Assembly (NCBI GenBank): GCA_041395205.1
Contig: JAWLAZ010000002.1
Span: 589,686-653,685 of the forward strand
DNA length: 64,000 nt
From: a bacterium
GTDB lineage: Bacteria > 4484-113 > JAFGCY01
Direction of reading: 5' to 3'
The first letter of the stretch is position 1. Each line of letters starts with the position of its first letter. The notes under the pieces are model-generated. The model worked only from the letters and a program-made list of their open reading frames with translations. It was not told the origin of the DNA and searched no databases. Below, piece after piece: positions 12,220-55,916 of the stretch. Made by a program: the position numbers and the translations under genes.

Positions 12220-15200
12220 ATGTTAAAAAGGTTTGATTTCGGCAAATCTCTCAACCGGCAGGTGGAAGCGTACAAGCGGCTGAACCCCCAGCAGCAGCAG
12301 AAGCGCCGCCCCGCCCTGCTCAAGAGTCTTGAGGAATATGCCCGCCGCTATCTCGAGGAAGTGATCAACCCCAACTCCGCCAATCCCGGCCAGCTCAAGA
12401 GCGGTGCCGAGAACCTGGTGGAGGCGGCTGCGGTGCTTGACGAGACCCGCGTGGCCTTTGAGACCTTCAGTGACATGGTGGCGCGCAGCCGCAAGGTGCC
12501 CGTGGTTCCCGGCCTCGCCGGCCTGGTGGACCGCATGCTCGAGCTGGAGAGTGATTCCCGCGAGCACCGCCTGTCCCTGCTCAACTGGCGCATCACGACG
12601 GGCAACATGCGCCCCGAGCGCCATCTTTCGTACCTGAGTGAACGGGCCAGCCTCACGAATGAGGTCAGCCACTGGAAGGACTTCGCCTGGGGACTGTCCC
12701 AGATGATCAACAAGGGCACCGTCAAGCAGGGAGATGACCTCGCGGTGCGTTCCCTTGAAACCCTGATTGAGAATCGCCAGAGCCTCGGCGACAAGGCCGT
12801 GGAAGTCACGCTGATGATGGCCGAGGCCCAGATCCTGCGCAAGAACGACCGCCAGGCCGAGGACCTGCTCGTTGAGATCATCTCCGAGGGCCGCAGCGTC
12901 GGCGAGGACTTCTACCAGCTCGCCAATTCCCTGCTGGACCACCGCCCCCAGTGCTGCTGGGAGCTGCACCAGATCGTGATGGAGCATTCCATCAAGGACT
13001 ACCGCAGCGGGCGCATCGGCTGGAACGTGCTCAGTGAGCGCCTCGAGCGCACGCACCAGCACCCGCTGGAGATTGCCAACTACCTGACGGTCCACAAGGA
13101 GATGGTGCGCGACGAGAAGCTCGCCGTGTACTGCCTGAAGCGCATCGTCAAGCTCGACAGCGAGCTGATCAAGGACAAGATCGGCAACTGGTTCCGCGCG
13201 TTCCAGCATGCCAAGCAGCAGCCGCCCAGCGCCGCCAATGAGTACCTGCAGATCGCGGCGGGCAAGGTTGCCAACATTGACTTCCCCGAGCTGCCGGAGT
13301 ACGTGATCCCGGACAGCCGCCCGACCCCGGATGCCAGCGTCAACGGCGCGGGCCCGGCCCCGGGTGCCGATGCCAGCCTCGAGCTCGACCAGGAGGGCAT
13401 CATCGACATCCAGGTGGAGGAGCCCGCCCCCGTCTATGACGACGAGGAGCCGGACTTCGCCACGGAGGATGTGAAGTACGACGACGAAGAGGATGAACCG
13501 GCCTGGGAGACCGCTGCGGAGGACGATGCCGCGGTGGAAGCCGAGGACGACTTCTCGCTCGACGACCTGCCGGATGACGAGGATGAGCTGGACGAGCCCG
13601 CGGCAGCGGTGCAGCCTCCCGCGCAGGAGCCGCAGCATGTCACGGCCGTGGTCTCAGCGGACTTCGACCTGGAGCGCCTGATCGAGAGCCTCGCGGACTG
13701 CGAGCGCCCCAACCAGGTCGGCGCCGTGCTGGAAAAGCACATAAATGCTGACAAACAGAGCGTCAATGAGCTGCACGCCATCAGCCACAACATCAATTCC
13801 TCCGGGCTGGCCCCCTGGCTCGTGGAGGAATCGCACCTGTGGTTCGCCGAGCAGCTGTTCCTGCAGGATGACAGCTCCGCCGCGGCCATGGAACTGCGCA
13901 GCATCCGCGTCCCCGACGAGGAGCATGCCAGCCGCCTGCGCCAGCGCGTGGAGCGCATGTTCGGCAGCCTGGACGGGGCTCCGGCCATCGCCGCGCACGT
14001 GGCGCGCCTGGCCCTGCGCACCGGTGACTACGAATCCGCCCTGGCCCGGGCCACGATGCTGCCCGAGGGTGAGGAGGACCGCCAGAACCTGCTGAAGTCC
14101 ATCGAGCAGTGGATCAACGCCCAGGCGGACATCCCGCCGGACATGCTGTTCGCGCTGGCCAATGCGCAGCGCATGCAGTCCGAGGATCCGCTGGCCGGCT
14201 TCGAGGCCGCCACCGCGGCGAGCCTGCTGGATCTCAACAACGGCAACATCCAGCAGGGCTACAGCATCTGGGTGGAGTCCATCAACCCGCGCGACGTGCA
14301 CATGCAGCGCGCCCGCCAGGCCAGCTACCTGACAACGGAGAAGGGCCACAGCGAGCTGCTGCCGATCGCGCTCGATGAAATCGACGCACTTGACAACTAC
14401 CTCGATGAGGAGATTAGCCGCGAGCCGATCCAGTGGCTGGACAACCTGCGCCCGCTGCTGGATGACCTCGACGAGAACGACCCGGCGCGCAACCGCATGC
14501 GCTGGACGCGGATCTACCTGAACCTCACGCAGCGCATCGGCAACATCGAGCAGTTCGAGCAGGTGCTGCAGCATGCGGCATCGCTGATCGCGCCTGAAGC
14601 CACGATGGACCTCATCAATGAGTACGGCGAGAAGCTGCCCGCCGGGGTGCGCTTCACCGTGCGCTACCGCTCGCTGGTGCATGCCGGCAAGTGGCAGGAG
14701 GCCATCAGCCTGTTCGACTCCCCCGAGGAGTTCATCATCAACGACTCGATGACCATCGAGCAGATCTGCAGTGAACTGCCGGACGAGGCCCTGCTGCCCG
14801 CCACGGAGAAGCTGCTCGGGGCCTTCCGCAGCCGCAATGACAGCGGTGCCCGCCTAGGCCTGATCAAGTCCATGAGCGACCGCTACGAGTCCGGCGGGCT
14901 CGGGCTGGATTCCAACCCGCCGCTCAAGGGCCTGCTGGATGAGACCCTGATGGATCTCTGCCGCGAGGAATTCGAGCCGGCCCTGCGCTACCGCCTGCAG
15001 ACCAACCGCGACATGGGCGACCTCGAGAACGTGGCCCGCGACCTGCTGGCCCTGGCCCGCGGCCATGACGAGAAGGCACTCGCCGAGCTGGAGGAGACCT
15101 TCTACCTGATGGTCAAGGCCCCGGAGCAGTCCACCACGGTGATCGAGATCGCCGAGGTGCTGGCCACGGCCTACAGCAAGCAGAGCCCGGATGCGGCGAT

Positions 15201-21169: not shown

Positions 21170-22320
21170 GGCGGGAGGCCCGATGTAAGTCGAGGCGAGA
21201 GAGCTCCGGCTTCAGCCGGAGTGGAGGCCCGATGTAAGTCGGGCGACACGATTGCACGGAGGAGGCTACGGCCCTCCTCTTTTTGATGGCTGCGCTGAGC
21301 GCGCTGCGCGCGAGCAGCGTAGTGTGCATGAGCGGTTTTCTCGCAGAGGCGCAGGCAGAGTTCGGTCCAGCCTATGGAATGCAAGTATTCTTTCTCGCCG
21401 GCAGCGCCGGTATGCTGGTTGCTGCAATGATTTCGAGTCCCTGCGTACTGGTCTCTGAACAATCCCGCTGCATCCCTATGCCCACTGCCAATTTGACAAT
21501 GTACCGGCGCGGCCGCGGTGGGAAAAGCGCCCCGGTTTGCGTTAGCGGAACATGGAACCAGATTTTTCGGAGCCTGCCTCGTGTTTGATTGCACGGAGGA
21601 GGGCTACGGCCCTCCTCTATTTTGGGATGGCTGGCGCTGAGCCGCGCTGCGCGCGAGCAGCGTAGTGCTCGCATGAGCGGTTTTCCTGGCGCAGAGGCGC
21701 AGAGGCGCAGAGTTTTCTGGTCCAGCCTATTTGGAATGGCAGATCGATTCGCAGCATTCCCTTTCAAGCGCTGCGGGGCAGCGCCGGTACTGCTGGTTGC
21801 TGCAATGATTTCTGACTATAGTCCTCTGCGTACTCTGCGGCTCTCTGCGTTGAACAATCCCGCTGCATCCCTATGCTCCAGCATTGCCAATTTGGATAAT
21901 GTACCGGCGCGGCCCCGCCGCGATTGGGAGAAAGCGCCCCGAAGTTTGCGTTGCCAGCGGAACATGGAACCAAATTGATTTTCTCTGTGAGCTCTGTGCC
22001 TCTGTGTTTGATCAGCACATCTGCATCCCTGCCTTGTTGCCGTTCGAGCTTAGCGAGCCGCGCTGCGCGCGAGAAGGGCATTGCTCGCATGGAAAGCAAA
22101 TCAAACACAGAGTCTCAGAGGGCACAGAGTTTTCTGGTCCAGCCAAATTGGAATTGCAGATCGCTTCGCAGCATTCCCTTTCAAGCGCTGCGGGGCAGCG
22201 CCGGTACAGCTGCCTGTTGTCCATGGTTTCTGACTATAGTCCTCTGCGTACTCTGCGCCTCTGCGTTGAACAATCCCGCTGCATCCCTGCCTGGCAGCCG
22301 CCTGTTCCCTTCCCTATAAT
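21170..22320. repeat. REPIN-like composite repeat region (divergent copies of the CACAGAG / GGCAATGCGCACTTCGCGGC / CGCCGGTAC family)
   Basis: Internal ~330-bp direct duplications (21252-21580 vs 21589-21960, and 21700-21900 vs 22120-22320). Contains CTCTGCG heptad runs, the TTGAACAATCCCGCTGCATCCCT motif, and the ACCGGCGCGGCCCCGCCGCGATTGGGAG REP core. Confidence 0.7.
21258..21285 (+). terminator. rho-independent terminator (hairpin plus T5) embedded in a repeated module
   Basis: GGAGGAGG-ctacggc-CCTCCTC followed by TTTTT. The same module recurs at ~21589-21620. Confidence 0.55.
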
Positions 22321-26989: not shown

Positions 26990-27895
26990 GGCAATGATTC
27001 TAGCGGGAGGAAGGAGGTCTGGCGCAAGCCAGGCGCGGAGCTGCGACGCCAGTCGCGGAATCTGGAGCAGGGAGTTGAAAACAGAAAGCAGGCTCGCCTG
27101 CGCTCGGGTGGCAACGAGACATGAATGAAGCGGTTCTGAAGATTAACCACAGAGATACAGAGATCACAGAGGAAATCCGGGGGATTCGATTACCCGTTGG
27201 CAATGCGCACTTCGCTGCATTCTTTCCCAGGCGTCGCGGGGCGCTGCCGGTACATGATCCGAATTGGCAATGAACGAAAATACATGAATACAGGAATTCT
27301 TTAACGCTATGGCGCGAAGCCGCGAAGGAAGATATGAGATGAGTTTCCCCATTTGAAGTCTGTACCGGCGTCGCCCTGCGACGCTAGAGAGGGATTGTCA
27401 CGAAGCAATCTGCAATTCCAGTTTTGCGGATTCAGAAACCTCTGTGCGCTCTGTGGCTCTGTGTTTGACATTTCTTCCATACTCGCTGCGCTCGGCTGGC
27501 AACGTGGCGGGGATGCAGCGGGTTTATTCAAACACAGAGGCGCAGAGATCACAGAGAAATTCAATTGGGGTCGGTGTTCCGTTGGCAATGCTTACTTCGC
27601 GGCGTGCTCTCCCAGGTGTCGCGGGGCGCGGCCGGTACACTTCTTCACGGTTCACGGTTCACGGTTCACTCTTCACGGTTCACGCTTCACGGTTCACGCT
27701 TCACCCCTGACACCCATTGCCGAGCTGGCGCTCGACCTCCAGATTGTGCGACATCAAGTGTCGCACCTCCCCGCTCGACCTCCAGATTGTGCGACAGCAA
27801 GTGTCGCACCTCCCCGCCAGACCTCCGACACACCGCTCAACAAAAAAGGGAGCGCCGCGGCGCTCCCTCAAGGTGGTTCGATGATCTGAACGGGC
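26990..27895. repeat. REPIN-like composite element (type-1 units in both orientations, then a (TTCACGG)n microsatellite and type-2 REP hairpins)
   Basis: AACCACAGAGATACAGAGATCACAGAG...GTTGGCAATGCGCACTTCGC...GCGTCGCGGGGCGCTGCCGGTAC at 27131-27253. An inverted copy starts TGTACCGGCGTCGCCCTGCGACGC at 27361. Tandem ttcacgg at 27641-27700. A 47-bp unit duplicated at 27721-27830 contains CCGAGCTGGCGCTCGACCTCC. Confidence 0.75.
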
Positions 27896-31029: not shown

Positions 31030-32160
31030 CTACACAAAAATTACCATAATGCGAATATTTGTCAAGGAATAGCAATGTTAATGCAGATTGAAGGCAGGAG
31101 GCAAAAGGCAGAAGGCAGTGGTCAGGAGCGCCGGAGGATGCCGGGGGAAACGAGGCAGGGAAGATGCGGTTTTGAAGATAAACCACAGAGATACAGAGAG
31201 CGCAGAGGAATCCTGAAAGAAACTATTGCCAATACCAGCAGGACCGGCGTCGCCCTGCGACGCTTGAAAGTAAATGCTGCGAAGTAATCTGCAATTCGAA
31301 TTTCCAGATTCAGAAAACTCTGTGGGCTCTGAGTCTCTATGTTTGACACTTCTTCCTGGCTCGCTGCGCCCGGGTGGCAACGAGGCGGGGATGCAGCGGT
31401 TATGAAGACTAACCACAGAGATACAGAGAGCGCAGAGGAATCCAATTGCGATCGGTGATCCGTTGGCAATGCGTACTTCGCGGCAGCTTCTCCCAATCGC
31501 GGCCGGGCCGCGCCGGTACATTTTCTGTTTGGCAATGCAAGGTCATCATGTAAACGATGTCCTGGCACTAAATCATGTAAACGATGTCCTGGCACTCATC
31601 ACTAAGGCGCTAAGCCGCTAAGGAAGAGAAGTGAAGTTCATCCCCACATGCAGCTGTACCGGCGCGGCCCCGCCGCGCTTGAAAGTGAATGCTGCGAAGT
31701 ATTCTGCAATTCGAGTATTGCAGATTCAGAAGACTCTGTGGGCTCTGTGGCTCTGTGTTTGACAATTCTTCCAGGCTCGCATGCGCTCGATTGGCAACGA
31801 GGCAGGGATGCAGCGGTTCTGAAGATAAACCACAGAGATGCAGAGAGCGCAGAGAAATTCAGTTGGGATCGATTACCCGTTGGCAATGCGCACTTCGCGG
31901 CATGCTCTCCCAGGCGTAGTGACGGAGTGTAGCTCTTAGAGCCACAGGGCCTTGTTGGTCTCAGACCAACACTCCGCCGAGCTGGCGCTCGACCTCCAAT
32001 GGCACAGCTGCGCGGCATGCCCTCCCAGGCGTAGTGACGGAGTGTAGCTCTTAGAGCTACATGGCCTTGTTGGTCTCAGACCAACACTCCGCCGAGCTCG
32101 CGCTCGACCTCCAATGGCACAGCTTCGCGTCGCAGCACATCCACGGTATACTCAATGACG
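31030..32160. repeat. REPIN-like composite repeat region (type-1 units in alternating orientation plus type-2 REP hairpins)
   Basis: Type-1 units in both orientations across 31100-31930, with a 26-bp direct repeat at 31545-31596. Two ~120-bp units at 31920-32150 each end in CCGAGCTGGCGCTCGACCTCC. Region 31393-31918 is duplicated at 35599-36118. Confidence 0.8.
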
Positions 32161-33242: not shown

Positions 33243-34679
33243 GTGATGACAAGGGGACGGGAGACAGAATCTGTGATGGAGCTGCGGCAGCCCGACAACC
33301 CCGTTGAGCTGCTGCTCGAGCGCCTGCACAGGCAGTCACGCGAGTACCGGCGGGGCTGGTTCAGCCGGCCGATGTTCGTCACCATCGCGGCAGTGCTGTT
33401 CCTGATCACCGTGATCCTGATCAGCCGCCAGCACTGGGCGCTGTCCCTGCATGACCCGCTGGCCACCAATCCGCTGTATGTGCAGTCCAGCCGGATCGTG
33501 GCCGTGATGGCCTGCCTGTGGTTCTACTTCAACCTCTCAATGCTGATGGCCTTCTCGCGGACGCTCAGCGCCGCCAGCCAGGGGCTGCAGCTCCTGTCAA
33601 CGGGACGTACGCGCAGCAATGCGCTCAGGATTGACGACCTGCTGCAGGGCAACCCGCTGGACAGCGCGACGATCCTCGACGGCCTGACGGCCTTTCACCG
33701 CCGGCGCTTCGCACCGCTGCTGTGGTTCCCGTGTTTCTATGTGCTGCTGGGTGCGGTGCTTAAGTTCCCATTACCATTGTTTGAAAACGGGAAAGTGCAA
33801 TGGCACTGGCAGTTCCTGCTGTTTCCGCTGGTTGCGCCGCTTTTCTACTTCATCTGCATGGCGGTGTTCTGCCTGCTGCTGCATGTGGGCATCCTGGTCG
33901 GCCGGCGGATCGCGCATCCCGTAGGCCAGCAACTGATGCTGTGGCTGCTGATCGGCGCGCCGCTGCTTGTGATGTTGCTTGTACAGCTGGTGATTCGCGG
34001 CCAGGGCATACCGCAGGACAGCGCGAAACTGCTCAGCCTGGCAGCGATCGGCCTGATGCTGCTGGTCCCGCTGCTGCTGTCCAGACTACTACGTGGACGT
34101 GCGCTTGCTGCGATCGAGGCCATTGCCAGTGGACAGTATGACAGGCAGGCGCTGGAAGCACGCAGCTCGGCTGGCAGTGAGCGGGACAGCGCTCCCTCAA
34201 GCCTGCTGAAGCCCGTGTACGCAATAGTGCTCGGCCTGCCGCTGTTGCTCGCCATGAGTGTGTTCATACACACTTTGAAGATGCAACCGCTGCAAGTGGA
34301 CACTGGCGACCCCTTCTTTGACTGGTACTTCGGCTATGCCCAGCAAACGGTCGAACGGTTGTGGATGAAGGGGCTGGATACGACTCCGGCTGATTCCGAG
34401 GATCCGGGTACGGATCTTGGTGGCGGGCATTACTACATCCATGAGCTGATGCAGCAGGCGGAACCGCAGTTCGGCGATGACCCGCGCTGGCAGCGGCTGC
34501 GCTATGAACTGCTGCGCAATGCAGCGGAAGAACCGCTGGCATTCGAGTTTGAAGGTGCAGCGGACAATGAGGAGCTTGCGAGCAAACTCATGGCGGACGC
34601 AATTGCCAGTGGCGTTGAAAATCCACCGGGGGGAGCTGTGGCTGTTCCAGGAGCGCTGGACGGAGTTTCGGGAGGCTGA
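33243..34679 (+). CDS. polytopic membrane protein; likely the N-terminal part of a longer gene interrupted by a G6-tract frameshift
   Basis: Multiple TM helices. The last ~15 codons after the GGGGGG run (34628-34633) look non-protein-like, while the +1 frame continues a plausible protein into the 34477-35553 ORF. Confidence 0.5.
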   Translation: MMTRGRETESVMELRQPDNPVELLLERLHRQSREYRRGWFSRPMFVTIAAVLFLITVILISRQHWALSLHDPLATNPLYVQSSRIVAVMACLWFYFNLSMLMAFSRTLSAASQGLQLLSTGRTRSNALRIDDLLQGNPLDSATILDGLTAFHRRRFAPLLWFPCFYVLLGAVLKFPLPLFENGKVQWHWQFLLFPLVAPLFYFICMAVFCLLLHVGILVGRRIAHPVGQQLMLWLLIGAPLLVMLLVQLVIRGQGIPQDSAKLLSLAAIGLMLLVPLLLSRLLRGRALAAIEAIASGQYDRQALEARSSAGSERDSAPSSLLKPVYAIVLGLPLLLAMSVFIHTLKMQPLQVDTGDPFFDWYFGYAQQTVERLWMKGLDTTPADSEDPGTDLGGGHYYIHELMQQAEPQFGDDPRWQRLRYELLRNAAEEPLAFEFEGAADNEELASKLMADAIASGVENPPGGAVAVPGALDGVSGG

Positions 34680-35553
34680 GATCAGCCAGCCGCCGGGACT
34701 GACTACGGAGCAGGCGGATATGCGGCATGCTGAACTGCTGGAGGAAATCAGGCAGCTGGCAGCGCACCTCAATGAAGCGACCCCGCTGTACTGGATCGCA
34801 GTATCGGACATGAGACTGGACGATGATGAGCGCATCTCCCTGATCCGCGATGGCAACGCGATGCAGTGCAGCTTCCATACCGGGCACTTCCGCATGGAGC
34901 TGGCGCGATCCATCCCGGCTGAAATGCAGATCCAGCGCGACCAGATCCTCTGCGCCATGCAGCCCTATGAATACATAATGAGCGAGCCGTACACGGTTGT
35001 CAATGGCATCGAGCTGAAGAAGCTGATTGAGCGCCTGGCAGCACAGCAGGACCTGGCGGCCCTGGATGAGATCAACCGGATGCTGTGCCGGCTGATGGCA
35101 ACGGAGGACATCAGTGACATCAATCCGCTGATGCTGCTTTCCTGCATGGGCAAGTTCGGCTCGGAGGTGCAGGCCAACTGCAAGCTGACAGCGGAGCAGG
35201 CGCAGGCGCTGAGGGAGTACGACCAGCTCAGGCGTAGCTTGCAGGATGACAACAAGAACATGCGGCGCAACTGGCCCTGGGACTTCACGGTGCAGCTGGA
35301 CCGGACGAGCGCGGAGTACCTGCCGGATGCGCTGCCTGATGCGCTGTTCGCGCCGCTTGCTGCGCTGGAATACAGGCTCAGCCTCGGACGCCTGTTCGCA
35401 TCCAGCTTCCACTATGAAATAAACACGATGACGCAGCAGCTGATCGATGAACTGGACTGGAGCCGGCGGCACATGGATGAGATCGAGCGGCTGTCACAGT
35501 TCGACTTCGAGACGCTCAGCTGGCGGAATGAGCATGCAGGGGATGATGAGTAG
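34633..35553 (+). CDS. cytoplasmic C-terminal portion of the same putative membrane protein (+1 frame after the G6 tract)
   Basis: From ELWLFQERWTEFREAEISQPP onward the translation is protein-like. The upstream part of ORF 34477-35553 (MTRAGSGCAMNCCAM...) is not. With G5 instead of G6 the two ORFs fuse in frame. Confidence 0.45.
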   Translation, partial: ELWLFQERWTEFREAEISQPPGLTTEQADMRHAELLEEIRQLAAHLNEATPLYWIAVSDMRLDDDERISLIRDGNAMQCSFHTGHFRMELARSIPAEMQIQRDQILCAMQPYEYIMSEPYTVVNGIELKKLIERLAAQQDLAALDEINRMLCRLMATEDISDINPLMLLSCMGKFGSEVQANCKLTAEQAQALREYDQLRRSLQDDNKNMRRNWPWDFTVQLDRTSAEYLPDALPDALFAPLAALEYRLSLGRLFASSFHYEINTMTQQLIDELDWSRRHMDEIERLSQFDFETLSWRNEHAGDDE

Positions 35554-35554
35554 G

Positions 35555-36620
35555 GATGTGGCTCGCCTTTTGCTCTGATGGCAACGAGGAAGGATGAGGC
35601 GGTTATGAAGACTAACCACAGAGATACAGAGAGCGCAGAGGAATCCAATTGCGATCGGTGATCCGTTGGCAATGCGTACTTCGCGGCAGCTTCTCCCAAT
35701 CGCGGCCGGGCCGCGCCGGTACATTTTCTGTTTGGCAATGCAAGGTCATCATGTAAACGATGTCCTGGCACTAAATCATGTAAACGATGTCCTGGCACTC
35801 ATCACTAAGGCGCTAAGCCGCTAAGGAAGAGAAGTGAAGTTCATCCCCACATGCAGCTGTACCGGCGTCGCCCTGCGACGCTTGAAAGTGAATGCTGCGA
35901 AGTTGCTAGATTCCCACCTTGGCCAGGCCCAGAAAACTCTGTGGGCTCTGTGGCTCTGTGTTTGACAATTCTTCCAGGCTCGCATGCGCTCGATTGGCAA
36001 CGAGGCAGGGATGCAGCGGTTCTGAAGATAAACCACAGAGATGCAGAGAGCGCAGAGAAATTCAGTTGGGATCGATTACCCGTTGGCAATGCGTACTTCG
36101 CGGCATGCTCTCCCAGGCGTCGCGGGGCGCCGCCGGTACTCACTTCCGATGGGATATTTCTTCCTGCATTCCTTCGCGACTTCGCGCCTTGGCGTTGAAG
36201 AAATCCATACCGCATTGCCTCGTTGTCATTCGAGTCAGGCTGTGGCGTGACGAGGCGCGCAACCGCGCGAGCAGTAACATGCTCGCCTGCAGGGTTTTAT
36301 TGGCGCAGAGGCGCAGAGAATGAAGATGCGCAGAGAAATGCGATGTCACTGGGCTCATTGCTCAATCGTCATTGCTCATTGCTTCGCGGCATGCTCTCTC
36401 AGGCGTCGCGGGGCGCCGACGCTACACGTCTTCACGGTTCACGCTTCACTCTTCACGGTTCACCCTTCACTTCCGGTCCGGCTTGCGCTGGTCAACCACG
36501 CCGAGCTCGCGCTAGACAGGCATGTTGTGCGACCTGCGCCGCACCTCCCCGCCTGATCTCCGGCAGCAATGAACTAATCCATCTCCCCACGGGTACTAAT
36601 CCGCATTGAATTGACTTGCC
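35555..36620. repeat. REPIN-like composite repeat region, near-identical duplicate of 31393-31918 plus a (TTCACGG)-like microsatellite
   Basis: 35599-35872 matches 31393-31665 almost base for base, and 35925-36118 matches 31700-31918. A 26-bp direct repeat lies at 35748-35799. A ttcacgg-type tandem lies at 36421-36475. Confidence 0.8.
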
Positions 36621-38188: not shown

Positions 38189-38456
38189 GCAGGAACACAA
38201 AGCTCATGCGCCAGGATGGAAAAAGGCCCCGGGGCCTGAGCACGGCTCTGTGAGGAGCCGGGGAAGAATCCCGGGGACAACCGGTTCATTATACCGGGAG
38301 CAACCTTCCCTGGCTGCTGAGCACGACGTCCATTGAATACTCAGGCCGCCGGTTTTGCACGGAATTCGCCAATAATCGAAATCAGCTCGCCTTAGTACTT
38401 CCGGCTCTTGTCAGACACGACTATAATCAGGTATGGTAATATCTGCTACCGCGTAA

Positions 38457-40149: not shown

Positions 40150-40380
<231 letters not shown>

Positions 40381-42714: not shown

Positions 42715-43200
42715 GAGCTACCCGCTTAAGCGGGGAGGCAACGGGGGTCGGGTTTCGGGTTTCGGTGATCGGCAGATAGGCTCGCATGCGCTCGGGTTGG
42801 CAACGGGGACGACTCGGGCGGAGCGGAAGATTATCCATCAGAGCGATTCCTGGGCTGGCTGAGCACGCAATGGAATATGGCGGGCGTGAACGCCCTTCCA
42901 CCGCTAGCAGGGCGTTTACGCCCCGGAAATGAGAGTGGCATCTGCATTTCCAACACGACCCCCGGAATCAGCAGAAGGACCGGCGCCGCCCCGCGGCGAT
43001 TGGGAGATGGCGCAGCAAGCTGCTAGTGTCCATCCAATACGAGGAAGCACCGGCGCTGGGACAGTCTATTCCTGCGAACTGACCGTTCGCAGTCCGGCGG
43101 GCTGAATGCCCGCGCTCCGCGCCGAGCTGGCGCTCGACCTCCCCGCCTGGCTTGCGCCAGACCTCCGTGGGCGGGAAATAATCCGCTGCTGTTTTCCGAA
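42715..43200. repeat. REP hairpin cluster (type-1 and type-2 units)
   Basis: GACCGGCGCCGCCCCGCGGCGATTGGGAG at 42981, and CCGAGCTGGCGCTCGACCTCCCCGCCTGGCTTGCGCCAGACCTCC at 43120-43170. Confidence 0.6.
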
Positions 43201-43277
43201 CAACGGGGGCAGTGCAGCGTCTGGATTATTACCAGTTCGACGATACAGGTTTTCACGACACAGCAACTCCTGACCTG

Positions 43278-43313
43278 GTGAACCCCGCGACGCATCGGGG
43301 TTCACTTTTTTTC
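43278..43313 (+). terminator. strong orphan rho-independent terminator (10-bp stem, T7)
   Basis: GTGAACCCCG-cgacgcat-CGGGGTTCAC followed by TTTTTTT. No protein-coding gene lies upstream on this strand for >500 nt. Confidence 0.6.
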
Positions 43314-43464
43314 TTAGCCCGGAAAGTGTTCCCCCCAAAAAGACCAGAAACAGTTCCCCTATTTCTTAGAACAAATCCGCAGCGGGGGTGGTCTCTCTAA
43401 TTACCAGTTCACATTGGCAGTCTTCAGAAACCGCAAGGGAGTTCTGATTTGACAGCGATGTAAG

Positions 43465-43498
43465 AGGCGCCGATTCAGCCCGGCGCCTTTTCCTTTTC
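43465..43498 (+). terminator. second orphan rho-independent terminator
   Basis: AGGCGCCG-attcagc-CCGGCGCC followed by TTTTCCTTTT. Confidence 0.5.
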
Positions 43499-43499
43499 T

Positions 43500-43900
43500 A
43501 GTTGCCCGCTCATGCAAGCATTCGCGGGTCTGCAATGCAGCTCAAAGCAAAGCTTCTCGCTGATTGCCCCTGCAGGAGATGTTTCGTTTGGGAGATGTAA
43601 CTTCAGCGCGACCCGGACGGCTTTGCCGGCCGCAGCGCCAGACCAGATTCTGTTTCCATCTCGTGCAATCCCGCCTTTGGCGGGACTCGATGGTCTGCAA
43701 TACAGCTCAAAGCAAAGCTTCTCGCTGATTGCGCGATGCGTCTTCAGGTGCTCAATTGCCAGACTGACATCTGGCCTCCTGTAACTTCAGCGCGACCCGG
43801 ACGGCTTTGCCGGCCGCAGCGCCAGACCAGTGAACCTTCAGGTGAACTGGAAACAAAATGCGATGGACCGCGGCAGGCAGCCCATCGCAACACACACACA
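43500..43900. repeat. type-3 repeat pair (two ~165-bp direct units)
   Basis: GGTCTGCAATGCAGCTCAAAGCAAAGCTTCTCGCTGATTGC at 43525 and again at 43690. GTAACTTCAGCGCGACCCGGACGGCTTTGCCGGCCGCAGCGCCAGACCAG at 43600 and again at 43780. TTGCCCGCTCATGCAAGCATTCGCGGGTCTG at 43503 recurs inverted at 60140. Confidence 0.7.
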
Positions 43901-43934
43901 CTGCGCCGGAGGATCTACCTCCGGCTGTTGTCAT

Positions 43935-44960
43935 CTAGATGTCGTCGTCAGCGAGGATCTCATCCTCGTCCTCGAAGTCCTCATCATCCACGTCCGGCAC
44001 CGGCACGCCGAGATCCGCTTCCGCCTCTGAGCGCTGGCCATTGGCCCTGAGGTCGATCCCGTCACGGCGCTTCCACTCGATCAGGAAGGCCGCCACGTTC
44101 TGGCTCAGATGGATGCTCACCCCGCGCGGGTTGTCATCCCAGTCGCTGCTCTCCGCCACACCGTCGCGCAGCTCCATCCCGTACTTCTCCAGGTTGAGCT
44201 TGGAGAGGCTGCCCGTGGCCTCGAGCCGCAGGGCGTAGTCCTCGGGGATGTGCAGCGTGATGCTGCCGGCGTTGTTGCGCACGTCCATCTCCACGCGGTC
44301 CTCGCGCCTGCCGAGCAGCAGCACCATGTTGCCGGCCTGGTTGTCAATCTCCAGGTCCTTCACATCGAGTTCGCTCAGATCGAAGTGCGCATCCGCCGCC
44401 GCATTGTGCAGGCTGGCGACGTAGGCCACGTCCGGATTGAGCTTCAGGCCGCTGCGCCCGATGCTGTGCTTGAGCGTGACATCGGCCTTGCCGCCCTTCA
44501 CGTCGCTGAGGATCACCGGCTCCGTGGGGGTGTTCTTGACCTTGCCCTGGATCAGCGGGCTGCCGCTTTCACCGCCCTTGACCTTGACGCGCCCGGCGCG
44601 GATGTCGAGCGTGAGGTTGCAGCGCTTGATGCCATCCGGGATCTCGACCTTGACGGGGAAGTCCCTGAGCTCCGTGTAGCGTGCGGCCTTGCTGCGCTTG
44701 TACTGGCGCTGGGTGCGGCGGAAGGTGTCAACGAGCGAGTTCTGGAACTCCACCGCGACCTCGCCGAGATTCTCCAGGTTGATCTTCGGCAGCTTGATGT
44801 TCGGCACATCGAAGCGCGTGCCGGCACTGCCGGCGGCTCCGCTGCGGCTGCTTTCGCGGCTTTCCGAATCCTGCAGGGCGTTGATCAGCTTCAGCCCCTC
44901 CTCGGGGGTCAGCCGGCCTTCCTGCACCATTTCCAGGATCTTGATCTTCTCTCTGCTCAT
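43935..44960 (-). CDS. DUF4097-like (putative adhesin / LiaG-like beta-helix) protein with an N-terminal SHOCT-like helix
   Basis: Start at MSREKIKILEMVQEGRLTPEEGLKLINAL (the internal M of ORF 43935-45014). Repetitive beta-strand segments are typical of DUF4097. Acidic C-terminal tail. Confidence 0.5.
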   Translation of the reverse strand: MSREKIKILEMVQEGRLTPEEGLKLINALQDSESRESSRSGAAGSAGTRFDVPNIKLPKINLENLGEVAVEFQNSLVDTFRRTQRQYKRSKAARYTELRDFPVKVEIPDGIKRCNLTLDIRAGRVKVKGGESGSPLIQGKVKNTPTEPVILSDVKGGKADVTLKHSIGRSGLKLNPDVAYVASLHNAAADAHFDLSELDVKDLEIDNQAGNMVLLLGRREDRVEMDVRNNAGSITLHIPEDYALRLEATGSLSKLNLEKYGMELRDGVAESSDWDDNPRGVSIHLSQNVAAFLIEWKRRDGIDLRANGQRSEAEADLGVPVPDVDDEDFEDEDEILADDDI

Positions 44961-44979
44961 GTTGTCCTCTCCAATTGAT

Positions 44980-45213
44980 CTATGCCGCGGCAGCCAGCCT
45001 GTCGACCGGAACACTGCGCTTCATCCACAGCAGGCAGGAGCCCCGCTGGGTGTCACCCAGCATCCGTGAGACGCTCTGCAGTTCCGCTGCCTCCAGCGGC
45101 TGCCAGCCCTGCCTGCGCAGGGTACTGATCAATTCACCCAGTTGTCCCAGCTCCACGTCCGAGACATCACGAAACATGTATTCCACACTGAACCGCATCG
45201 TTTCCCTTCCCAC
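44980..45213 (-). CDS. small hypothetical protein between the DUF2089 and DUF4097 genes
   Basis: 77-aa ORF located between the two genes; no motif recognised. Confidence 0.3.
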   Translation of the reverse strand: MGRETMRFSVEYMFRDVSDVELGQLGELISTLRRQGWQPLEAAELQSVSRMLGDTQRGSCLLWMKRSVPVDRLAAAA

Positions 45214-45225
45214 TGACGCCCGGCG

Positions 45226-45645
45226 TCAGTCCCTGAGGCGGCTCTCGGCCTCCTCGACCGTAAGCTCACCCCGCTCCAGGGCCGCGAGGATCTCCTCACG
45301 GCTTTCATGATCATCTTCATCTGCAGCGGCGGCCGCCGCCTCACCGGCGTAGGCCCCGCCATCCATCCCGAGGCTGGCCAGAAGCTGGTCAAGCCGGCCG
45401 CGGACCGTCGGATAGCTGATGTTCAGCACCGACTCAACCTCCTTCAGGTTGCCGCGGCAGGACAGGAAGGTCCGCAGGAACTCCAGCTTGTCCTGGGGCA
45501 GGCGGGCGAACTCATTGGCCATGAATACGCCGTTGAGCTCGGTGTCGCACTCATTGCAACGCAGGTGCGTGACGCTGAGCTGCCCGCTGCACACGGGACA
45601 TTCGGAAATCAGCCTGTTGGCCTTCTTGTTGTTTCTGAACATCAC
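45226..45645 (-). CDS. DUF2089-family protein (zinc ribbon plus HTH, SHOCT-like C-terminus)
   Basis: CPVCSGQL...CNECDTEL zinc ribbon, an HTH-like LKEVESVLNISYPTVRGRLDQL segment, and a C-terminal ILAALERGELTVEEAESRL. Confidence 0.55.
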   Translation of the reverse strand: MMFRNNKKANRLISECPVCSGQLSVTHLRCNECDTELNGVFMANEFARLPQDKLEFLRTFLSCRGNLKEVESVLNISYPTVRGRLDQLLASLGMDGGAYAGEAAAAAADEDDHESREEILAALERGELTVEEAESRLRD

Positions 45646-46110
45646 ATCAGCATAGTAACAAGCATTTTCAACTATGTCAAGATCATTTTTGAAAATATTG
45701 AGGTTGATCTTTCGAATTAGCTTCAGGTAAGTAAGAAATGCGCAGTTTTTCTGAGATTGGACTTCAGATGTGGAAAGGAGGAAGAGGAAGATATGGGAGG
45801 GAGAGGAGAGAGAAGATCAACCACAGGGAGCACGGAGAACACGGAATCAGAAGCAGAATGAGAATCAGCAGAGGGGACGGCGGCAATTGGGAGGGGCTCT
45901 TGCGGAGTGCCACTTTCATTTCCCGGGCGTAAACGCCCTGCTACTGGTGGAAGGGTGTGGCAGTTGCATATTCCTTCAGGAGGTAACTTAATGGAGAAGG
46001 ACCGGCGCCGCCCTGCGGCGATTGGGAGGGGCTCTTGCAACCCCTTTGGAACCATCAAAACAAAGAAGGACCGGCGCCGCCTGGCGGCGATTGGTAGATG
46101 GCGTTACGAT

Positions 46111-46599
46111 TCAAGCTCCACCAGTCCGCCGAAGTTCATCCAGATGCGGATTGTAGAGAATGTACTGGCGAATGCGGTTCAGGGATACTTCGCTGTTCAC
46201 GATCTTCTCGTGGAATCCGTTCTGCCAGATTGCCAGTCCAGGATTTCCCGTTGTCAGGCGCGCTTCCTTCGTCACGGCCCCCTTGAATGAATTGATCACG
46301 GTTCCCAGCTTGGGTGGCCGTTCAGCATCAGCACCGTGGTGCTCTAGAAGCAGCAGGGCATGCAAGTGATTCGGCATGATTCTGTAAAGGTCATTGCTGA
46401 CATTGCTGTAAACCTGATTGTTGCGTTGCCAGATTTCATCGGCAATCCTGCCAAGCATGCTCAGTTCCACGGTGTTCTGCTGTCCGATCCTGCCGAAGAG
46501 ATTCCTGTTGCCAGCAGTGCAGATGGTGACGAAGTAGTAGCCGGGGGTGGAGTAATCATATCCGGCAAGACGATTGGAGTTTCTTTTGGGAACCAACAT
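46111..46599 (-). CDS. REP-associated tyrosine transposase (RAYT, IS200/IS605-like Y1 HUH), copy 1
   Basis: From MLVPKRNSNR. HUH motif IMPNHLHALL, catalytic-Tyr motif IRQYILYNP, and YYFVTICTAG near the N-terminus. The longer ORF to 46806 reads through the adjacent REP array and is rejected. Confidence 0.7.
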   Translation of the reverse strand: MLVPKRNSNRLAGYDYSTPGYYFVTICTAGNRNLFGRIGQQNTVELSMLGRIADEIWQRNNQVYSNVSNDLYRIMPNHLHALLLLEHHGADAERPPKLGTVINSFKGAVTKEARLTTGNPGLAIWQNGFHEKIVNSEVSLNRIRQYILYNPHLDELRRTGGA

Positions 46600-47010
46600 A
46601 TGGCAATAATAGGGCAATTTGTGGCACTCCGCAACTATGCCTCCCAATCGCCGCGGGGCGGCGCCGGTCCTTTGCTCGTCTCGATGGATCCTGCATCTCT
46701 TTGCTGCGCCATCTCCCAGTCGCCGCGGGGCGGCGCCGGTCCTGCCTCGTGTTGGATGGACTCTAACCGGTGGCTGCATTACCTCCCAATTGCCGCGGGG
46801 CGGCACCGGTCCTGCCTCGTGTTGGATGGACTCTAGCCGGTTGCTGCATTACCTCCCAATCGCCGCGGGGCGGCGCCGGTCCTGCCTCGTGTTGGATGGA
46901 CTCTAGCCGGTTGCTGCATTGCCTACCAATCGCCGCGGGGCGGCGCCGGTCCTTCCTCGTGTTGGATGGACTCTAACCGGTGGCTGCATTACCTCCCAAT
47001 TGCCGCGGGG
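46600..47010. repeat. tandem array of five ~76-bp REP units adjacent to RAYT copy 1
   Basis: Unit CCTCCCAATCGCCGCGGGGCGGCGCCGGTCCTGCCTCGTGTTGGATGGACTCTAGCCGGTTGCTGCATTA repeated 5 times with few substitutions. The core CGCCGC-GGG-GCGGCG is a hairpin. Inverted copies occur at 42981, 45995 and 46065. Confidence 0.8.
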
Positions 47011-47027
47011 CGGCACCGCTACCCTCC

Positions 47028-47110
47028 CTGACCACTGACTTCTGACCATTGACCACTGACTTCTGACCACGGACCACTGACCACTGACCACTGACCACTG
47101 ACCACTGATT
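47028..47110. repeat. (CTGACCA)n heptamer tandem array
   Basis: About 11 tandem heptamers of the CTGACCA/CTGACTT type, between the REP array and the divergently transcribed 47176 gene. Confidence 0.7.
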
Positions 47111-49415: not shown

Positions 49416-50756
49416 ATGAAGCGTGGACTGGCTGGGATCGGACTGAGCGTGCTGGCGCTGTTGCTGACTGCGCTGCATGCCGCATCCTGTGGCGGAGCAT
49501 CCGCCGCCGGTTCAGTGGATTCCGCTCCCGTTATCCAGGCCGCAGCGGCTCCGGCCTTCCCGCTGGATGACCCGCATTTCTCGCGCCAGGTGAAGGCGCT
49601 GGAAACCCTGGACGGCACGCAGACCTACTCCGACTGCGGAGCTCCGGGCTTCGCCGTGCATGACACGATCGCCACGGTGGGCGTGCTCGCCAGCAGCGAG
49701 GCCCAGCCCAGCGCCTGGGCGGTCTACCGCTTCCCGCTGAACAACCCCACCGACCTTGAATCGATCAAGGTCACCCTCCACCAGGGCAAGCTGGACGATT
49801 ACTACTACGTGATGCTGGCTGACTACACCAGCAAGCGCTGGCAGCTCGTCGGGCAGAAGCTGTCCACCTCCCAGGTGCTGCCGGCGGACTGGCAGGGCCT
49901 CGACATCACCAGCCCGGCCAAGTTCGTCTATATCGCTGTGATCGTGGTGGACGGGCGCGACATCAACATCGCCGGGCTGGAGTCCAGCATCACGCAGGGA
50001 AATGGAGGGGACTACCCGATCTACGACGACTTCGAGGACAACGACACGCTTGACACCTGCTATCCGATCGGCGTGGGCAGCTATGTTGCCAGCACGCATG
50101 ACGACTTCGTGCCCGAGATGCTGGAGATTGACGAGGCCCAGGACCACTGGGACTTCTACTGCATCGACCTGAATGCCGGTGAGCACTTCACCGCCACGCT
50201 GGAGTATGAGTACGTCAACCACTTCGACCAGCCCAACGGCACCTTCAACGATCTCGACATGCTGATGTACGCGCCGGGTGTGATGGACCTGCCATTGGAC
50301 AACTTCAATGAGCAGTGGAGCAGCATCCGCATCTACTTCACGAACATGGAGCTCGTGAGCTTCGTGGCCCCCGGCACTGGCACCTACCGCATCGGGATCC
50401 GAGGCGACCTGGGCGACCAGTTCTCGGCGGACAGCAATGCGGAGTACGTGCTGAAGACCTTCGTGAGTGCGGATACGCACAAGGTCAGCGGCTTCATCAC
50501 GCAGAATGAGCAGGAACCGGACAAGAAGTTCCTCGTGGTGCTGACGCCGGGCAACTTCAGCGGCGTGACCTCACTGGAGGCCGCACCCCACGGCGGCTAT
50601 GAAATCAACGGCGTGCCGGATGGGACCTACACCATGGAAGTGCGCGGCAGCGCGGCCTGGAACCAGCATGACTACACCTATCCGAATACCAAGCAGGTGG
50701 TGGTCAGCGGCGGCGACGTGAACATCAGCATGAGCATCGACCCCTTCCCGGGCTAG
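49416..50756 (+). CDS. lipoprotein with a PPC-like domain and C-terminal carboxypeptidase-regulatory-like domain
   Basis: Lipobox LHAASCGG. GTGTYRIGIRGDLGDQFSADSNAEYVLKTF resembles pre-peptidase C-terminal domains. The C-terminal KVSGFI...GVPDGTYTMEV resembles CarboxypepD_reg. Confidence 0.5.
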   Translation: MKRGLAGIGLSVLALLLTALHAASCGGASAAGSVDSAPVIQAAAAPAFPLDDPHFSRQVKALETLDGTQTYSDCGAPGFAVHDTIATVGVLASSEAQPSAWAVYRFPLNNPTDLESIKVTLHQGKLDDYYYVMLADYTSKRWQLVGQKLSTSQVLPADWQGLDITSPAKFVYIAVIVVDGRDINIAGLESSITQGNGGDYPIYDDFEDNDTLDTCYPIGVGSYVASTHDDFVPEMLEIDEAQDHWDFYCIDLNAGEHFTATLEYEYVNHFDQPNGTFNDLDMLMYAPGVMDLPLDNFNEQWSSIRIYFTNMELVSFVAPGTGTYRIGIRGDLGDQFSADSNAEYVLKTFVSADTHKVSGFITQNEQEPDKKFLVVLTPGNFSGVTSLEAAPHGGYEINGVPDGTYTMEVRGSAAWNQHDYTYPNTKQVVVSGGDVNISMSIDPFPG

Positions 50757-50850
50757 GAGGTCTGGCGCGAGCCAGGCGCGGAGGTCGAGCGCCAGCTCGG
50801 CGCGGAGGTCTGGCGCAAGCCAGGCGCGGGAGGTCCGGCGCAAGCCGGAA
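50757..50850. repeat. type-2 REP hairpins (inverted orientation) flanking RAYT copy 2
   Basis: GGAGGTCGAGCGCCAGCTCGG and GGAGGTCTGGCGCAAGCCAGGCG units, which are reverse complements of the units at 51601-51700. Confidence 0.7.
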
Positions 50851-50853
50851 TCC

Positions 50854-51474
50854 TCACTCCTTTCGCAATACGCGTCGGGGATCCACTGTATCCATCAGCG
50901 ATTCCAGACTGAAGCCATGCACACTGCTGTGTTGCCAGTCCGTCTGGCAAGCTGCCAGACCTGCCTTGACCGGATTGTCATGAATGTAGTCAAGCGTATG
51001 CTTCAGATGGTCAAGGCTGCGCATCGCCCGGTCAAAGTAACTGCCCTGCCAGAGTTTCCCCGATCTGCCGAGCAGGCGATTGATGCGCAGGGAGGAACGT
51101 GACTTGAGCAGTCGGACCGTATCACCCAGCCGGGCATGCTCCAGCTGCCTGATCAGCAGATGGACATGGTTTGGCATCACCACCCAGGCCAGTAGTGAGT
51201 AATGATCCTCCGCTGTCTCCATAAGGACATCCCTGAATGCAATGGCAGCACCTGCCGATGCCAGCAGACAGGTTCCCAGACAGCGATCCAGCTGATCATC
51301 CATAGTCTGGAACACACGCTCGCCGTCCAGCCTGCCCTGGAAGCTGTTGTGTGAGCGGCGCTCCCGAGGTGCGGCATCAGCCAGCACGAACGTCAGGAAC
51401 TGCAGGCAACCCTTATCGTCAAAATGCGGCAGATTGTCGTGCTTGTAGAATCCGCGATGAGTATCAGGCTTCAT
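50854..51474 (-). CDS. REP-associated tyrosine transposase (RAYT, IS200-like), copy 2
   Basis: HUH motif VVMPNHVHLLI, catalytic-Tyr motif LDYIHDNPVKAGL, and an N-terminal FLTFV strand motif. It is a distinct sequence from copy 1. Confidence 0.7.
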   Translation of the reverse strand: MKPDTHRGFYKHDNLPHFDDKGCLQFLTFVLADAAPRERRSHNSFQGRLDGERVFQTMDDQLDRCLGTCLLASAGAAIAFRDVLMETAEDHYSLLAWVVMPNHVHLLIRQLEHARLGDTVRLLKSRSSLRINRLLGRSGKLWQGSYFDRAMRSLDHLKHTLDYIHDNPVKAGLAACQTDWQHSSVHGFSLESLMDTVDPRRVLRKE

Positions 51475-51589
51475 GCCATGATTATATTTCTTATTTACTT
51501 TATGTCAAGGGATAGATGTTGAGGTTGTACATGAGTTCATCCGGAGCGGGTTCCGGATGGTGAGGGTGCAGGATGGACCGGCTTGCGCC

Positions 51590-51720
51590 GGGATACCATT
51601 GCCGAGCTGGCGCTCGACCTCCGACGCCTGGCTTGCGCCAGACCTCCGTTGTCCGGCTTGCGCCGGGATACCGCGCCGAGCTGGCGCTCGACCTCCATCG
51701 CCGAGCTGCCCCTCCCCCTC
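51590..51720. repeat. type-2 REP hairpins (forward orientation) on the other flank of RAYT copy 2
   Basis: CCGAGCTGGCGCTCGACCTCC occurs 3 times and CGCCTGGCTTGCGCCAGACCTCC once. Together with 50757-50850 these form inverted REP doublets around the RAYT gene. Confidence 0.7.
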
Positions 51721-51921
51721 CAATGATGTAACCCGTATCGCGCACGGGCGTCCCTAGATATGTGTTGGACGGGTGCATTGATGGGACCGCTCCAGAACTT
51801 CCGGTACATTAACGGAGCTGGCCCCGGCAAGCAGGCACCGCGGGCTGAAAGTTGTTATCATTAACAGTTGTTAAGAACCGGTAATACCCGAGATTCCCAC
51901 AGACCAGAACTGCGAGGACCG

Positions 51922-55127: not shown

Positions 55128-55230
55128 AGTAGTGAGTGGTCTGTGGTCAGTGGTCAGTACCCATATTGTCCGACCAGTGATTTCTGACTACTGACTACTG
55201 ACTACTGACTACTGATTACTGACCACTGAC
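55128..55230. repeat. inverted heptamer tandem arrays (GTGGTCA)n ... (CTGACTA/CTGACCA)n at a convergent gene junction
   Basis: AGTGGTCTGTGGTCAGTGGTCAG at 55128-55160 and (CTGACTA)n(CTGACCA)n at 55175-55230 are mutually complementary, separated by ~15 nt. Confidence 0.7.
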
Positions 55231-55232
55231 CA

Positions 55233-55916
55233 CTATTCCCACAGGTCAGCCTGGTATTCGCCCTCGGGGCTTCTGTAGCCGAAGACCTCACGGAATTCGC
55301 GCTCCAGCGCATCGCCGACCTCATCGAGGGTGGGCGTGCGGCCGCTGATGCTCTCGATGCTGCCGACCTGCTTGCCGGTGATCCCGCAGGGAATGATCAG
55401 GTCGTAGAAGCTCAGGTCCGTTGTCACGTTCAGAGCCAGACCGTGGTAGCTCACCCCGCCGCGCACCGCCACGCCGAGTGCGGCGAGCTTGACCTCGCCG
55501 ACCCAGACGCCGGTCAGGCCGGGGCTGCGCCCGCTCTCGATCCCCCATTCATGCAGGGTGCGGATCAGCGTCTCCTCCAGGCCGTGCATCAGCTCGCGCA
55601 CGCCCATCCCCCGCGCGCGCAGGTTGACAACGGGATAGCCCACGAGCTGGCCGGGGCCGTGGAAGGTGATGTCCCCGCCGCGCTCGATCTCGCGCCAGTC
55701 CACGCCCAGTTCGCTCAGGCCCTCCCTGTCAACGATCAGGTTGGCACTGTCGCCGCTGCGCCCAAGCGTGATCACGGGATCGTGCTCGACGAGGATCAGG
55801 GTGTCGGGGATTTCATCCATGCGCCGGGCGGTGTGCAGTTCGAGCTGGCGCTCATAGCAGCGCGGCCAGTCCAGGCGCCCGAGGCGCAGCACATCCAGGG
55901 GCGGATGGACAGCCAT
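55233..55916 (-). CDS. lipB: lipoyl(octanoyl) transferase
   Basis: LILVEHDPVITLGRSGD, RGGDITFHGPGQLVGYP and KLAALGVAVR motifs of LipB. Confidence 0.85.
   Translation of the reverse strand: MAVHPPLDVLRLGRLDWPRCYERQLELHTARRMDEIPDTLILVEHDPVITLGRSGDSANLIVDREGLSELGVDWREIERGGDITFHGPGQLVGYPVVNLRARGMGVRELMHGLEETLIRTLHEWGIESGRSPGLTGVWVGEVKLAALGVAVRGGVSYHGLALNVTTDLSFYDLIIPCGITGKQVGSIESISGRTPTLDEVGDALEREFREVFGYRSPEGEYQADLWE

Follow-up and report, generated by a model that had tools for sequence, protein, structure and literature searches.

A stretch of 64,000 nucleotides from an uncultivated bacterium labelled UBP7/Planctomycetales (contig JAWLAZ010000002.1 of assembly GCA_041395205.1, positions 589,686 to 653,685; hereafter the window, with positions counted from its first letter) contains a locus that is very probably a REPtron. 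In this locus, a gene of the type of the repetitive extragenic palindrome (REP)-associated tyrosine transposases (RAYTs), encoding a Y1 HUH enzyme, has inverted REPs on both sides and a head-to-tail amplification of REPs upstream. The gene, termed RAYT1 here, already carries a 'transposase' annotation at NCBI, where a product 100% identical to that of RAYT1 is deposited as MEZ5338660.1 ('MAG: transposase', 162 amino acids (aa); MAG, metagenome-assembled genome). A first-pass annotation, made from the sequence alone, had described a RAYT abutting a tandem array of its REPs; this observation stands with corrected numbers, and its interpretation was right in kind. To our knowledge, work on RAYT/REP systems has been confined almost entirely to Proteobacteria. 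Together with a second RAYT gene in the window (RAYT2), the locus documents two complete REPtrons in the UBP7/Planctomycetales-labelled lineage, while the current picture of RAYTs is left unchanged.

The RAYT1 protein

The RAYT1 coding sequence occupies 46111..46599 on the minus strand. It encodes 162 aa from an ATG at 46599, a start backed by homologues, to a TGA stop at 46111-46113. A Y1 transposase of 163 aa had been proposed, in which the gene and its HUH and tyrosine motifs were recognized correctly but the length was not. In a 28-sequence alignment of relatives, HLHAL (H78 and H80), Y146 of YILYNP and N150 are invariant, and Pfam Y1_Tnp matches 27 of the 28. The profile of this alignment finds E. 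coli TnpA_REP (4ER8) with E=3.9e-8 across both catalytic motifs, followed by the ISDra2 transposase. The motifs on which the first-pass annotation had staked the assignment are thus invariant among relatives and aligned by the profile to 4ER8. An AlphaFold2 model of the product (predicted local distance difference test score 90, predicted template modelling (TM) score 0.84) has 4er8_A as its top match in a fold search of the PDB (probability 1.00, TM 0.55), and the ISDra2, IS608 and IS200 transposases come next. The sole NCBIfam match is REP_Tyr_transpos (NF047646; 52.4 bits, E=5e-14).

A database search gave 211 homologues, of which many are named 'REP element-mobilizing transposase RayT' in Joint Genome Institute (JGI) data and many have a Pfam Y1_Tnp domain. 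Labels among them include cyanobacterial, Chloroflexota and Planctomycetota ones, a range that recalls RAYT 'Group 4' (PMC5581495), this being a likeness of range and not a group assignment. By its motifs, profile and predicted fold, RAYT1 is a RAYT/TnpA_REP-type Y1 HUH enzyme that belongs to a divergent clade. A search of the window with tblastn gave one RAYT1 copy and the second RAYT, which is 28% identical to RAYT1 over a local match of 79 residues only. No tnpB-sized open reading frame (ORF) adjoins RAYT1 in the ORF list.

The REP family and the upstream array

The REP that accompanies RAYT1 (type A) is 33 nt long and is composed of a 6-bp G+C stem and a 3-nt loop between conserved flanks, reading CTCCCAAT-CGCCGC-GGG-GCGGCG-CCGGTCC on the strand of the upstream array and GGACCGG-stem-ATTGGGAG on the opposite strand. 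The window has seven occurrences of the core CGCCGC-NNN-GCGGCG where 0.09 would be expected, and none of 100 shuffles reached that number. Three of the seven are in inverted orientation, and the inverted copies listed in the first-pass annotation are indeed present at 42975-43007, 45997-46029 and 46066-46098. Covariation was assessed on 32 REPs in register, namely those of the array, the inverted copies, the end hairpins of composite elements (21.7-36.1 kb) and the REPs at four orthologue loci. Of the six core stem pairs, five show compensatory changes (CG to GC or UA). Covariation scores 0.30, compared with 0.10 for shuffles, none of 500 attaining the observed value, and the score collapses if the partners are slid by 1-3 columns. 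The flanks are conserved across the set, with CCGGT invariant. This pattern argues that the REP is conserved as a stem-loop structure, not just as a sequence.

Six REP hairpins are arranged head-to-tail on the plus strand at 46640..47024, as delimited by Tandem Repeats Finder, a covariance model and reading of the units. Each unit consists of a 33-nt REP and a 37-39-nt tail. Unit U1 (46640-46711) has 72 nt, U2-U5 (46712-46991) have 70 nt each, and U6 (46992-47024) is truncated to the REP, with its 3' flank lost. Tandem Repeats Finder reports 46640-47018 with a period of 70, 5.4 copies, 88% matches and a score of 535, and the 70-nt units share 91-96% identity. The tandem array was therefore rightly seen in the first pass, although not with its period or count (five units of ~76 bp each with a hairpin, instead of 70 bp, 5.4 units and six hairpins). 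Stem and loop read CGCCGC-GGG-GCGGCG in four of the hairpins and, in a compensated form, TGCCGC-GGG-GCGGCA in the other two. The covariance-model matches in the array score 29-53 bits, all on the plus strand.

Downstream of RAYT1, REPs lie in the opposite orientation on the minus strand. REP d1 (46066..46098; 49.7 bits), which has the loop CAG, is inverted relative to the array and forms the 3' boundary of the REP-RAYT-REP cassette discussed below, and d2 (45997..46029; loop AGG, 53.1 bits) lies 69 nt from d1. Together with their spacer, d2 and d1 make a diverged two-unit inverted copy of the ~70-nt module, as 45996-46059 is 75-76% complementary to the array (inverted repeats I17/I19). A degenerate REP at 45873..45893, read from the sequence, has an internal deletion of ~10 nt between GGGGACGGCG and GCAATTGGGAG; its full-length counterpart (36.9 bits) is found at 12992-13024 of the collinear contig JAGRNT010000004.1 (GCA_020440605.1; hereafter L001) from a close relative. 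Further away, a solitary inverted extended unit at 42975..43056, also on the minus strand, comprises a REP (42975-43007; 53.5 bits), its tail and the start of a further REP, and inverted repeats I7-I10, of 81-83 nt, pair it with array units at 83-86% complementarity. RAYT1 is thus bracketed by its own REPs in inverted orientation, six upstream against two and a degenerate one downstream. In L001, and likewise in each of the five orthologue loci examined (L002, L003, L014, L016 and L017; 50-64% identity), the gene is flanked by REP hairpins in mutually inverted orientation. The JGI metagenome locus L002 also has three REPs in tandem upstream (58-nt period, 2.6 copies), oriented with respect to the gene as they are here.

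The covariance model finds 22 REPs in five intergenic clusters of the window. All ten type-A REPs are located at 42975-47024, within 4 kb of RAYT1, and the four other clusters contain related subtypes. The exact type-A pattern occurs three times in the related MAG that contains L001, every time at the RAYT locus, once in CP060262, the complete genome (4.1 Mb) of a relative at greater distance, and not at all in the JGI metagenome contigs. The cognate REP family assumed to be genome-wide in the first pass is accordingly real but local, as far as could be seen in the sequences scanned. In Marinomonas REPtrons, REPs are concentrated around tnpA_REP, as here, and this has been read as recent local multiplication (PMC8266576). 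A scan of 42-52.5 kb with Rfam gave nothing relevant.

The tandem repeats upstream of RAYT1 could in principle be of another nature. An unrelated variable-number tandem repeat, which the first-pass annotation had named as the alternative, is excluded by the fact that the array units carry the REP that also flanks RAYT1. A decayed inverted REP within each 70-nt unit, which would make the unit a doublet like those of REPINs or bacterial interspersed mosaic elements (BIMEs), was ruled out by an unfiltered covariance-model search on both strands, where the array spacers contained no inverted REP; therefore, the array units are not REPINs/BIMEs. These elements are also built from REPs, presumably depend on a RAYT, and in the case of BIMEs also occur in consecutive tandem copies, but their unit consists of two opposed REPs, whereas each unit here has one REP and all six lie on the plus strand.

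It is extremely unlikely that the array codes for repeats that extend the transposase at its N terminus or is an array of the CRISPR (short palindromic repeats that are clustered and regularly interspaced) kind. A mechanical call yields an ORF of 231 aa that starts with GTG at 46806, passes through array units 1-2 into unit 3 and ends at 46111, in line with the warning of the first-pass annotation about fusion of the array to the gene; the 72-bp spacing of units 1-2 preserves the frame. The 70-bp units break it, however, and the five closest homologues begin at the same methionine (MLVPKR/MLINKR/MLVPLR) or later, none with an N-terminal extension. The array and the 'extension' can be taken as non-coding because no homologue is extended, the 70-bp period is not a multiple of 3 and NCBI calls the 162-aa product. 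As for CRISPR, the 'spacers' are themselves repeated as parts of whole units with 91-96% identity and are not unique, and Rfam, CRISPR repeats included, has no family that matches the array at E≤1. Naive ORF calling evidently over-extends such genes into G+C-rich repeat arrays, which is a lesson for annotation.

Several known systems resemble the locus. REPtrons such as those of E. coli (4ER8), Stenotrophomonas and Marinomonas have in common with it the Y1 HUH fold, the HUH motif, a single catalytic tyrosine, and bracketing by short G+C-rich inverted palindromes whose stem has a conserved tag, here a putative one, to one side. Unlike the classical ones, RAYT1 is only ~18% identical to 4ER8, and its REPs differ in the tag and in their dispersal, as detailed below. 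The emphasis of the first pass on the tandem array, REPs being taken to occur more typically as singlets or doublets, was overstated. REP dimers arranged head-to-tail, and clusters in which REPs and their flanking DNA are repeated in tandem, have been described (PMC3733652), as have REPs concentrated at tnpA_REP in Marinomonas (PMC8266576); the tandem array follows an already-described style of REP organisation. The published clusters share with it the one-way REPs, a unit of REP plus adjacent DNA and a copy number that varies between relatives. They come mostly from Pseudomonas and enterobacteria and consist of GTAG REPs, while the present array is from an uncultivated lineage, has a regular 70-bp period and is placed immediately upstream of the RAYT gene (PMC3733652).

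Elements of the IS200/IS605 family carry hairpins that lie on the same strand at both ends and are not inverted repeats, occur in multiple copies and often include tnpB. The ~0.6-kb cassette here has the same transposase fold and hairpins at both ends, but it has 33-nt inverted-repeat ends, was seen as a single copy and is without tnpB.

By analogy with TnpA_REP of E. coli, Stenotrophomonas and Marinomonas (PMC8266576), the RAYT1 protein would bind the folded single-stranded REP with its tag and cut and rejoin the DNA beside it. The array represents head-to-tail amplification of one 70-bp module, i.e., a REP with ~38 nt of flanking DNA.

Several results weigh against reading the locus as a REPtron. 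The score of RAYT1 with REP_Tyr_transpos is under the curated NCBIfam cutoff (52.4 versus 80 bits), as are those of its orthologues (61-69 bits). A Pfam scan of the 162-aa and 231-aa products has no match at E≤0.01, and a PDB search with the single sequence of RAYT1 returns noise only (peptide deformylase, E ~0.7). Since Pfam is silent on RAYT1, family membership was drawn from NCBIfam, the profile search and the fold search. The folding energies of hairpin and unit are no better than those of shuffles of this G+C-rich sequence (z ~0) and are uninformative, so that the REP structure rests on covariation. Type-A REPs are also without the canonical GTAG tag. An invariant motif G(G/T)ACCGG is situated 5' of the stem on one strand, with GGAC in type-A REPs and GTAC in those of the composite elements of the window, and a true GTAG occupies this position at the foot of the stem in the more distant orthologues L016 and L017; the putative tag GGAC/GTAC looks like a variant of GTAG. 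Dispersed high-copy type-A REPs, as in classical REPtrons, were not seen in the 64-kb window, the related MAG, CP060262 or the JGI metagenomes. Finally, the mechanism of amplification is reconstructed from the repeats, most likely as slippage or unequal exchange as against RAYT-catalysed strand transfer. Two of these deviations are of use to the REP field: the putative tag is GGAC/GTAC where more distant orthologues within the protein clade have GTAG, and the REPs are amplified locally and not dispersed.

Rearrangement of the locus in a close relative

L001 is collinear with the window at 89-97.4% nucleotide identity per gene. Its array has three REPs (half of U1, U2 and U6) in place of six. 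In the window, 64 nt that span the U2 spacer and the U3 REP recur unchanged across the U5 spacer and the U6 REP, which is regarded as the footprint of a 210-bp, three-unit duplication. This duplication would account for the three hairpins in L001 as against six in the window, and it would have been the last step in the growth of the array. In view of the duplication and of the two-fold difference in copy number, the array would most likely grow and shrink through slippage at replication or through unequal exchange, in either case between neighbouring REPs. Its copy number is variable.

The position of the gene also differs. The 609-bp REP-RAYT-REP cassette of the window (46064..46672, minus strand), with 33-nt inverted REPs as its ends, is 96.7% identical by blastn (46672..46064) to L001 9787-10395, and the likeness starts and stops at the outer ends of both REPs. 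In L001 this cassette lies ~3 kb away and inverted, across a SHOCT/DUF2089 gene pair, between a nucleotidyltransferase gene and the pair, where the window has the solitary inverted REP unit (42975-43056). The neighbouring genes keep their order and strand. REPs are found at every breakpoint of the rearrangement, and other modules (a ~100-nt element and array units) are shuffled at both sites as well. REPs mark the breakpoints of a larger reshuffling of the neighbourhood that includes relocation of the whole cassette. A single inversion between the REPs at 42975 and 46640 would flip the DUF2089/SHOCT pair, which is not inverted; therefore, the relocation took at least two events. Three histories fit: a pair of nested inversions between inverted REPs, a duplication with later differential loss, or excision of the cassette and its reinsertion. 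Within d1, the gene-proximal flank (ATCTACCAAT) is that of the 3' REP of the L001 cassette and the loop CAG is that of the REP resident at site B of L001, a mix expected if an exchange occurred inside the hairpin.

In L001, RAYT1 (9860-10348) is a pseudogene in which the ATG start is changed to ACG and codon 21 from TAC to TAA; it has been deposited from an internal methionine as a 115-aa 'hypothetical protein' (MCB1216575.1). As nine of the remaining 13 substitutions are synonymous, purifying selection until recently is suggested. The term 'domesticated' in the first-pass annotation is not borne out by a cassette that is found in L001 at another site, in the opposite orientation and with a pseudogene.

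Both the window and L001 are MAG contigs, L001 being a SPAdes contig of ~6x coverage, and the region is dense in repeats. The relocation might thus be an assembly artefact in one of the two MAGs, which would affect this comparison and not the locus itself. Repeats of 33-43 nt are shorter than typical final assembler k-mers. The longest near-exact repeats shared by the sites are just of this length, and the two versions differ by point substitutions, the two disabling mutations and other indels, as in truly diverged loci. Because the shared repeats are short and the versions genuinely diverged, an artefact seems very unlikely.

If the rearrangement is taken as real, the 609-bp cassette might be an active autonomous transposon with 33-nt REP termini that reinserts at REP sites, and the ~287-bp elements described below might be its non-autonomous derivatives. 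The likeness to L001 that ends exactly at the outer REP ends, a move of ~3 kb with inversion between collinear flanking genes, the presence of RAYT2 with its REP arrays in the window and their absence from the syntenic site of L001, and four full and one partial ~287-bp elements with the same iREP...REP ends all speak for such a transposon, yet it is doubtful. The gene is single-copy in each available sequence, and a 57%-identical orthologue in another species keeps one gene context throughout the nine independent assemblies shown (of 17 contigs read), even though the position and orientation of RAYT1 itself differ in L001. Both sites differ by more than a clean insertion or excision, with the other modules shuffled too, and the crossover-like hairpin d1 fits recombination between REPs equally well. 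Two nested inversions, or duplication with differential loss, would yield the same end state. The 97% nucleotide identity of RAYT1, within the range of its neighbours, gives no sign of a recent transfer, and recent horizontal acquisition of the cassette was rejected on this ground. The literature reports no mobility of tnpA_REP (PMC8266576), from which the differing position of the cassette in close relatives departs.

It is rather improbable that the REP-bounded cassette moves as a unit or did so until recently. If this were true, the comparison would be evidence for relocation of tnpA_REP, contradicting the no-mobility statement of the literature, and the lineage would preserve an intermediate leading from an IS200-like transposon to a domesticated RAYT/REPIN system. 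A REPtron with a head-to-tail REP array, and with REPs at the breakpoints of its rearranged surroundings, is the reading preferred here. In either case, a comparison of two genomes with REPs at every breakpoint, RAYT relocation and a three-unit array change is of use to the field. It offers an inexpensive test case for two questions, whether a REPtron can move and whether the RAYT or ordinary recombination gives rise to local head-to-tail clusters.

The region between array and gene bears on a possible function of the upstream REPs. The first REP ends 40 nt 5' of the ATG, and the gap (46600..46639, minus strand), which ends in TATTATTGCCAT directly before the ATG, is identical in L001 at 37 of 40 positions. 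It probably holds the promoter, and the mRNA would be nearly leaderless. An A/T-rich -10-like box directly precedes a conserved TGCCAT/TGTCAT-ATG in the orthologues L014 and L003. A consensus scan detected no promoter at RAYT1 and no terminators; therefore, the REPs are not intrinsic terminators.

The array might be maintained for a regulatory or architectural role, with the REPs acting as RAYT-binding sites for autoregulation of the promoter or as an insulator of the divergent promoters of RAYT1 and of the gene at 47185. Such a role would suit the location of the first REP directly upstream of the presumed promoter in both the window and L001, and the upstream tandem REPs of L002; down-regulation of RAYT expression by REP hairpins has been proposed (PMC3733652). 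However, the copy number differs two-fold between close relatives, the tails are not conserved across lineages (58-nt versus 70-nt units), L003 has one upstream REP only, the consensus scan gives no promoter-like or terminator-like site, and L001 retains the repeats despite its dead gene. A regulatory role of the upstream REPs is possible but poorly supported, and maintenance of the array for it is unlikely.

A second REPtron and other repeats of the region

RAYT2 is encoded at 50854-51474 on the minus strand. Its product of 206 aa is identical to MEZ5338664.1 and matches REP_Tyr_transpos with 94.8 bits, above the cutoff of 80. In the unit 50756-51722, mutually inverted tandem arrays of 24-25-nt REPs stand on both sides of the gene, making a second, unrelated REPtron. 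These REPs have covarying 5-bp stems (CCGGC/CGAGC/CTGGC), a TTGC/TGGC loop and an ACCTCC tail, and REPs of this type are also found at ~27012, 27719, 31976, 32091 and 43121. At the syntenic site of L001 (17050-17329), RAYT2 and the arrays are absent and two copies of a ~125-nt repeat are present instead. Several distinct REPtrons per genome are known from other bacteria; the two of the window are 4 kb apart. Tandem REPs are found at RAYT1, at L002 and at RAYT2, and thus are a habit of this lineage beside RAYT genes.

Non-coding composite elements of ~287 bp are present at 27357-27640, 31236-31522, 31651-31940 and 35854-36142, with a partial one at 35440-35725 and related ends at 21760-22209. 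They are 79-92% identical, have inverted REP-type ends tagged GTACCGG with stems that differ by compensatory changes, and recur at ~4.2-kb spacing between gene blocks. They and the RAYT1 cassette have the same terminal architecture, and only the termini in common. The first-pass annotation had seen the type-A core in their terminal hairpins; the flanks are related, but the stems differ in a compensated manner and are followed by CCGGTAC and not by CCGGTCC. An origin of the composite elements as RAYT remnants was rejected, as tblastn gave no significant match (E>2) and the terminal REPs alone are common to them and the cassette. No RAYT with a tag that matches the GTACCGG elements was found in the window. 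Directly after one ~287-bp element lies a tandem duplication (31896-32129) of a 115-bp unit, with copies that are 95% identical and include a RAYT2-type REP and a long stretch resembling a hairpin.

The ~100-nt repeat that is shuffled together with the REPs contains GGGCGTTTACGCCC / GGGCGTGAACGCCC hairpins and is located at 42844-42940 and, inverted, at 45879-45958 in the window and at 9660-9757 and 13093-13200 in L001. It is always joined to a truncated REP, and the two genomes differ in where it stands relative to the REPs. The interval it fills is bounded by the very pair of REPs that encloses RAYT1 in the window.

Many intergenic regions contain heptanucleotide tandem repeats (CTGACCA, CTGACTA, AGTGGGC, TTCACGG and others), often beside REPs. 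Examples are 47028-47108, which abuts the end of the array, 40328-40378, 55184-55234, 40156-40241, 27644-27704 and 36419-36470 in the window, and 7114-7165 in locus L012. The run lengths differ between the window and L001, and the lone type-A REP of CP060262 is ~50 nt from such a run.

The two contigs also differ in their genes. L001 has at 4587-5240 an extra 217-aa gene with a faint Abi_2 match, between the gene for inosine monophosphate dehydrogenase and the next gene, which is absent from the corresponding place of the window (38301-38334). The segment 33175-35723 is 80% identical to L001 2-2550, while its neighbours show 92-97% identity. There, a single gene of 768 aa in L001 corresponds to two ORFs of the window that overlap (33243-34679 and 34477-35553), a difference suggestive of a paralogue, a frameshift or allele replacement.

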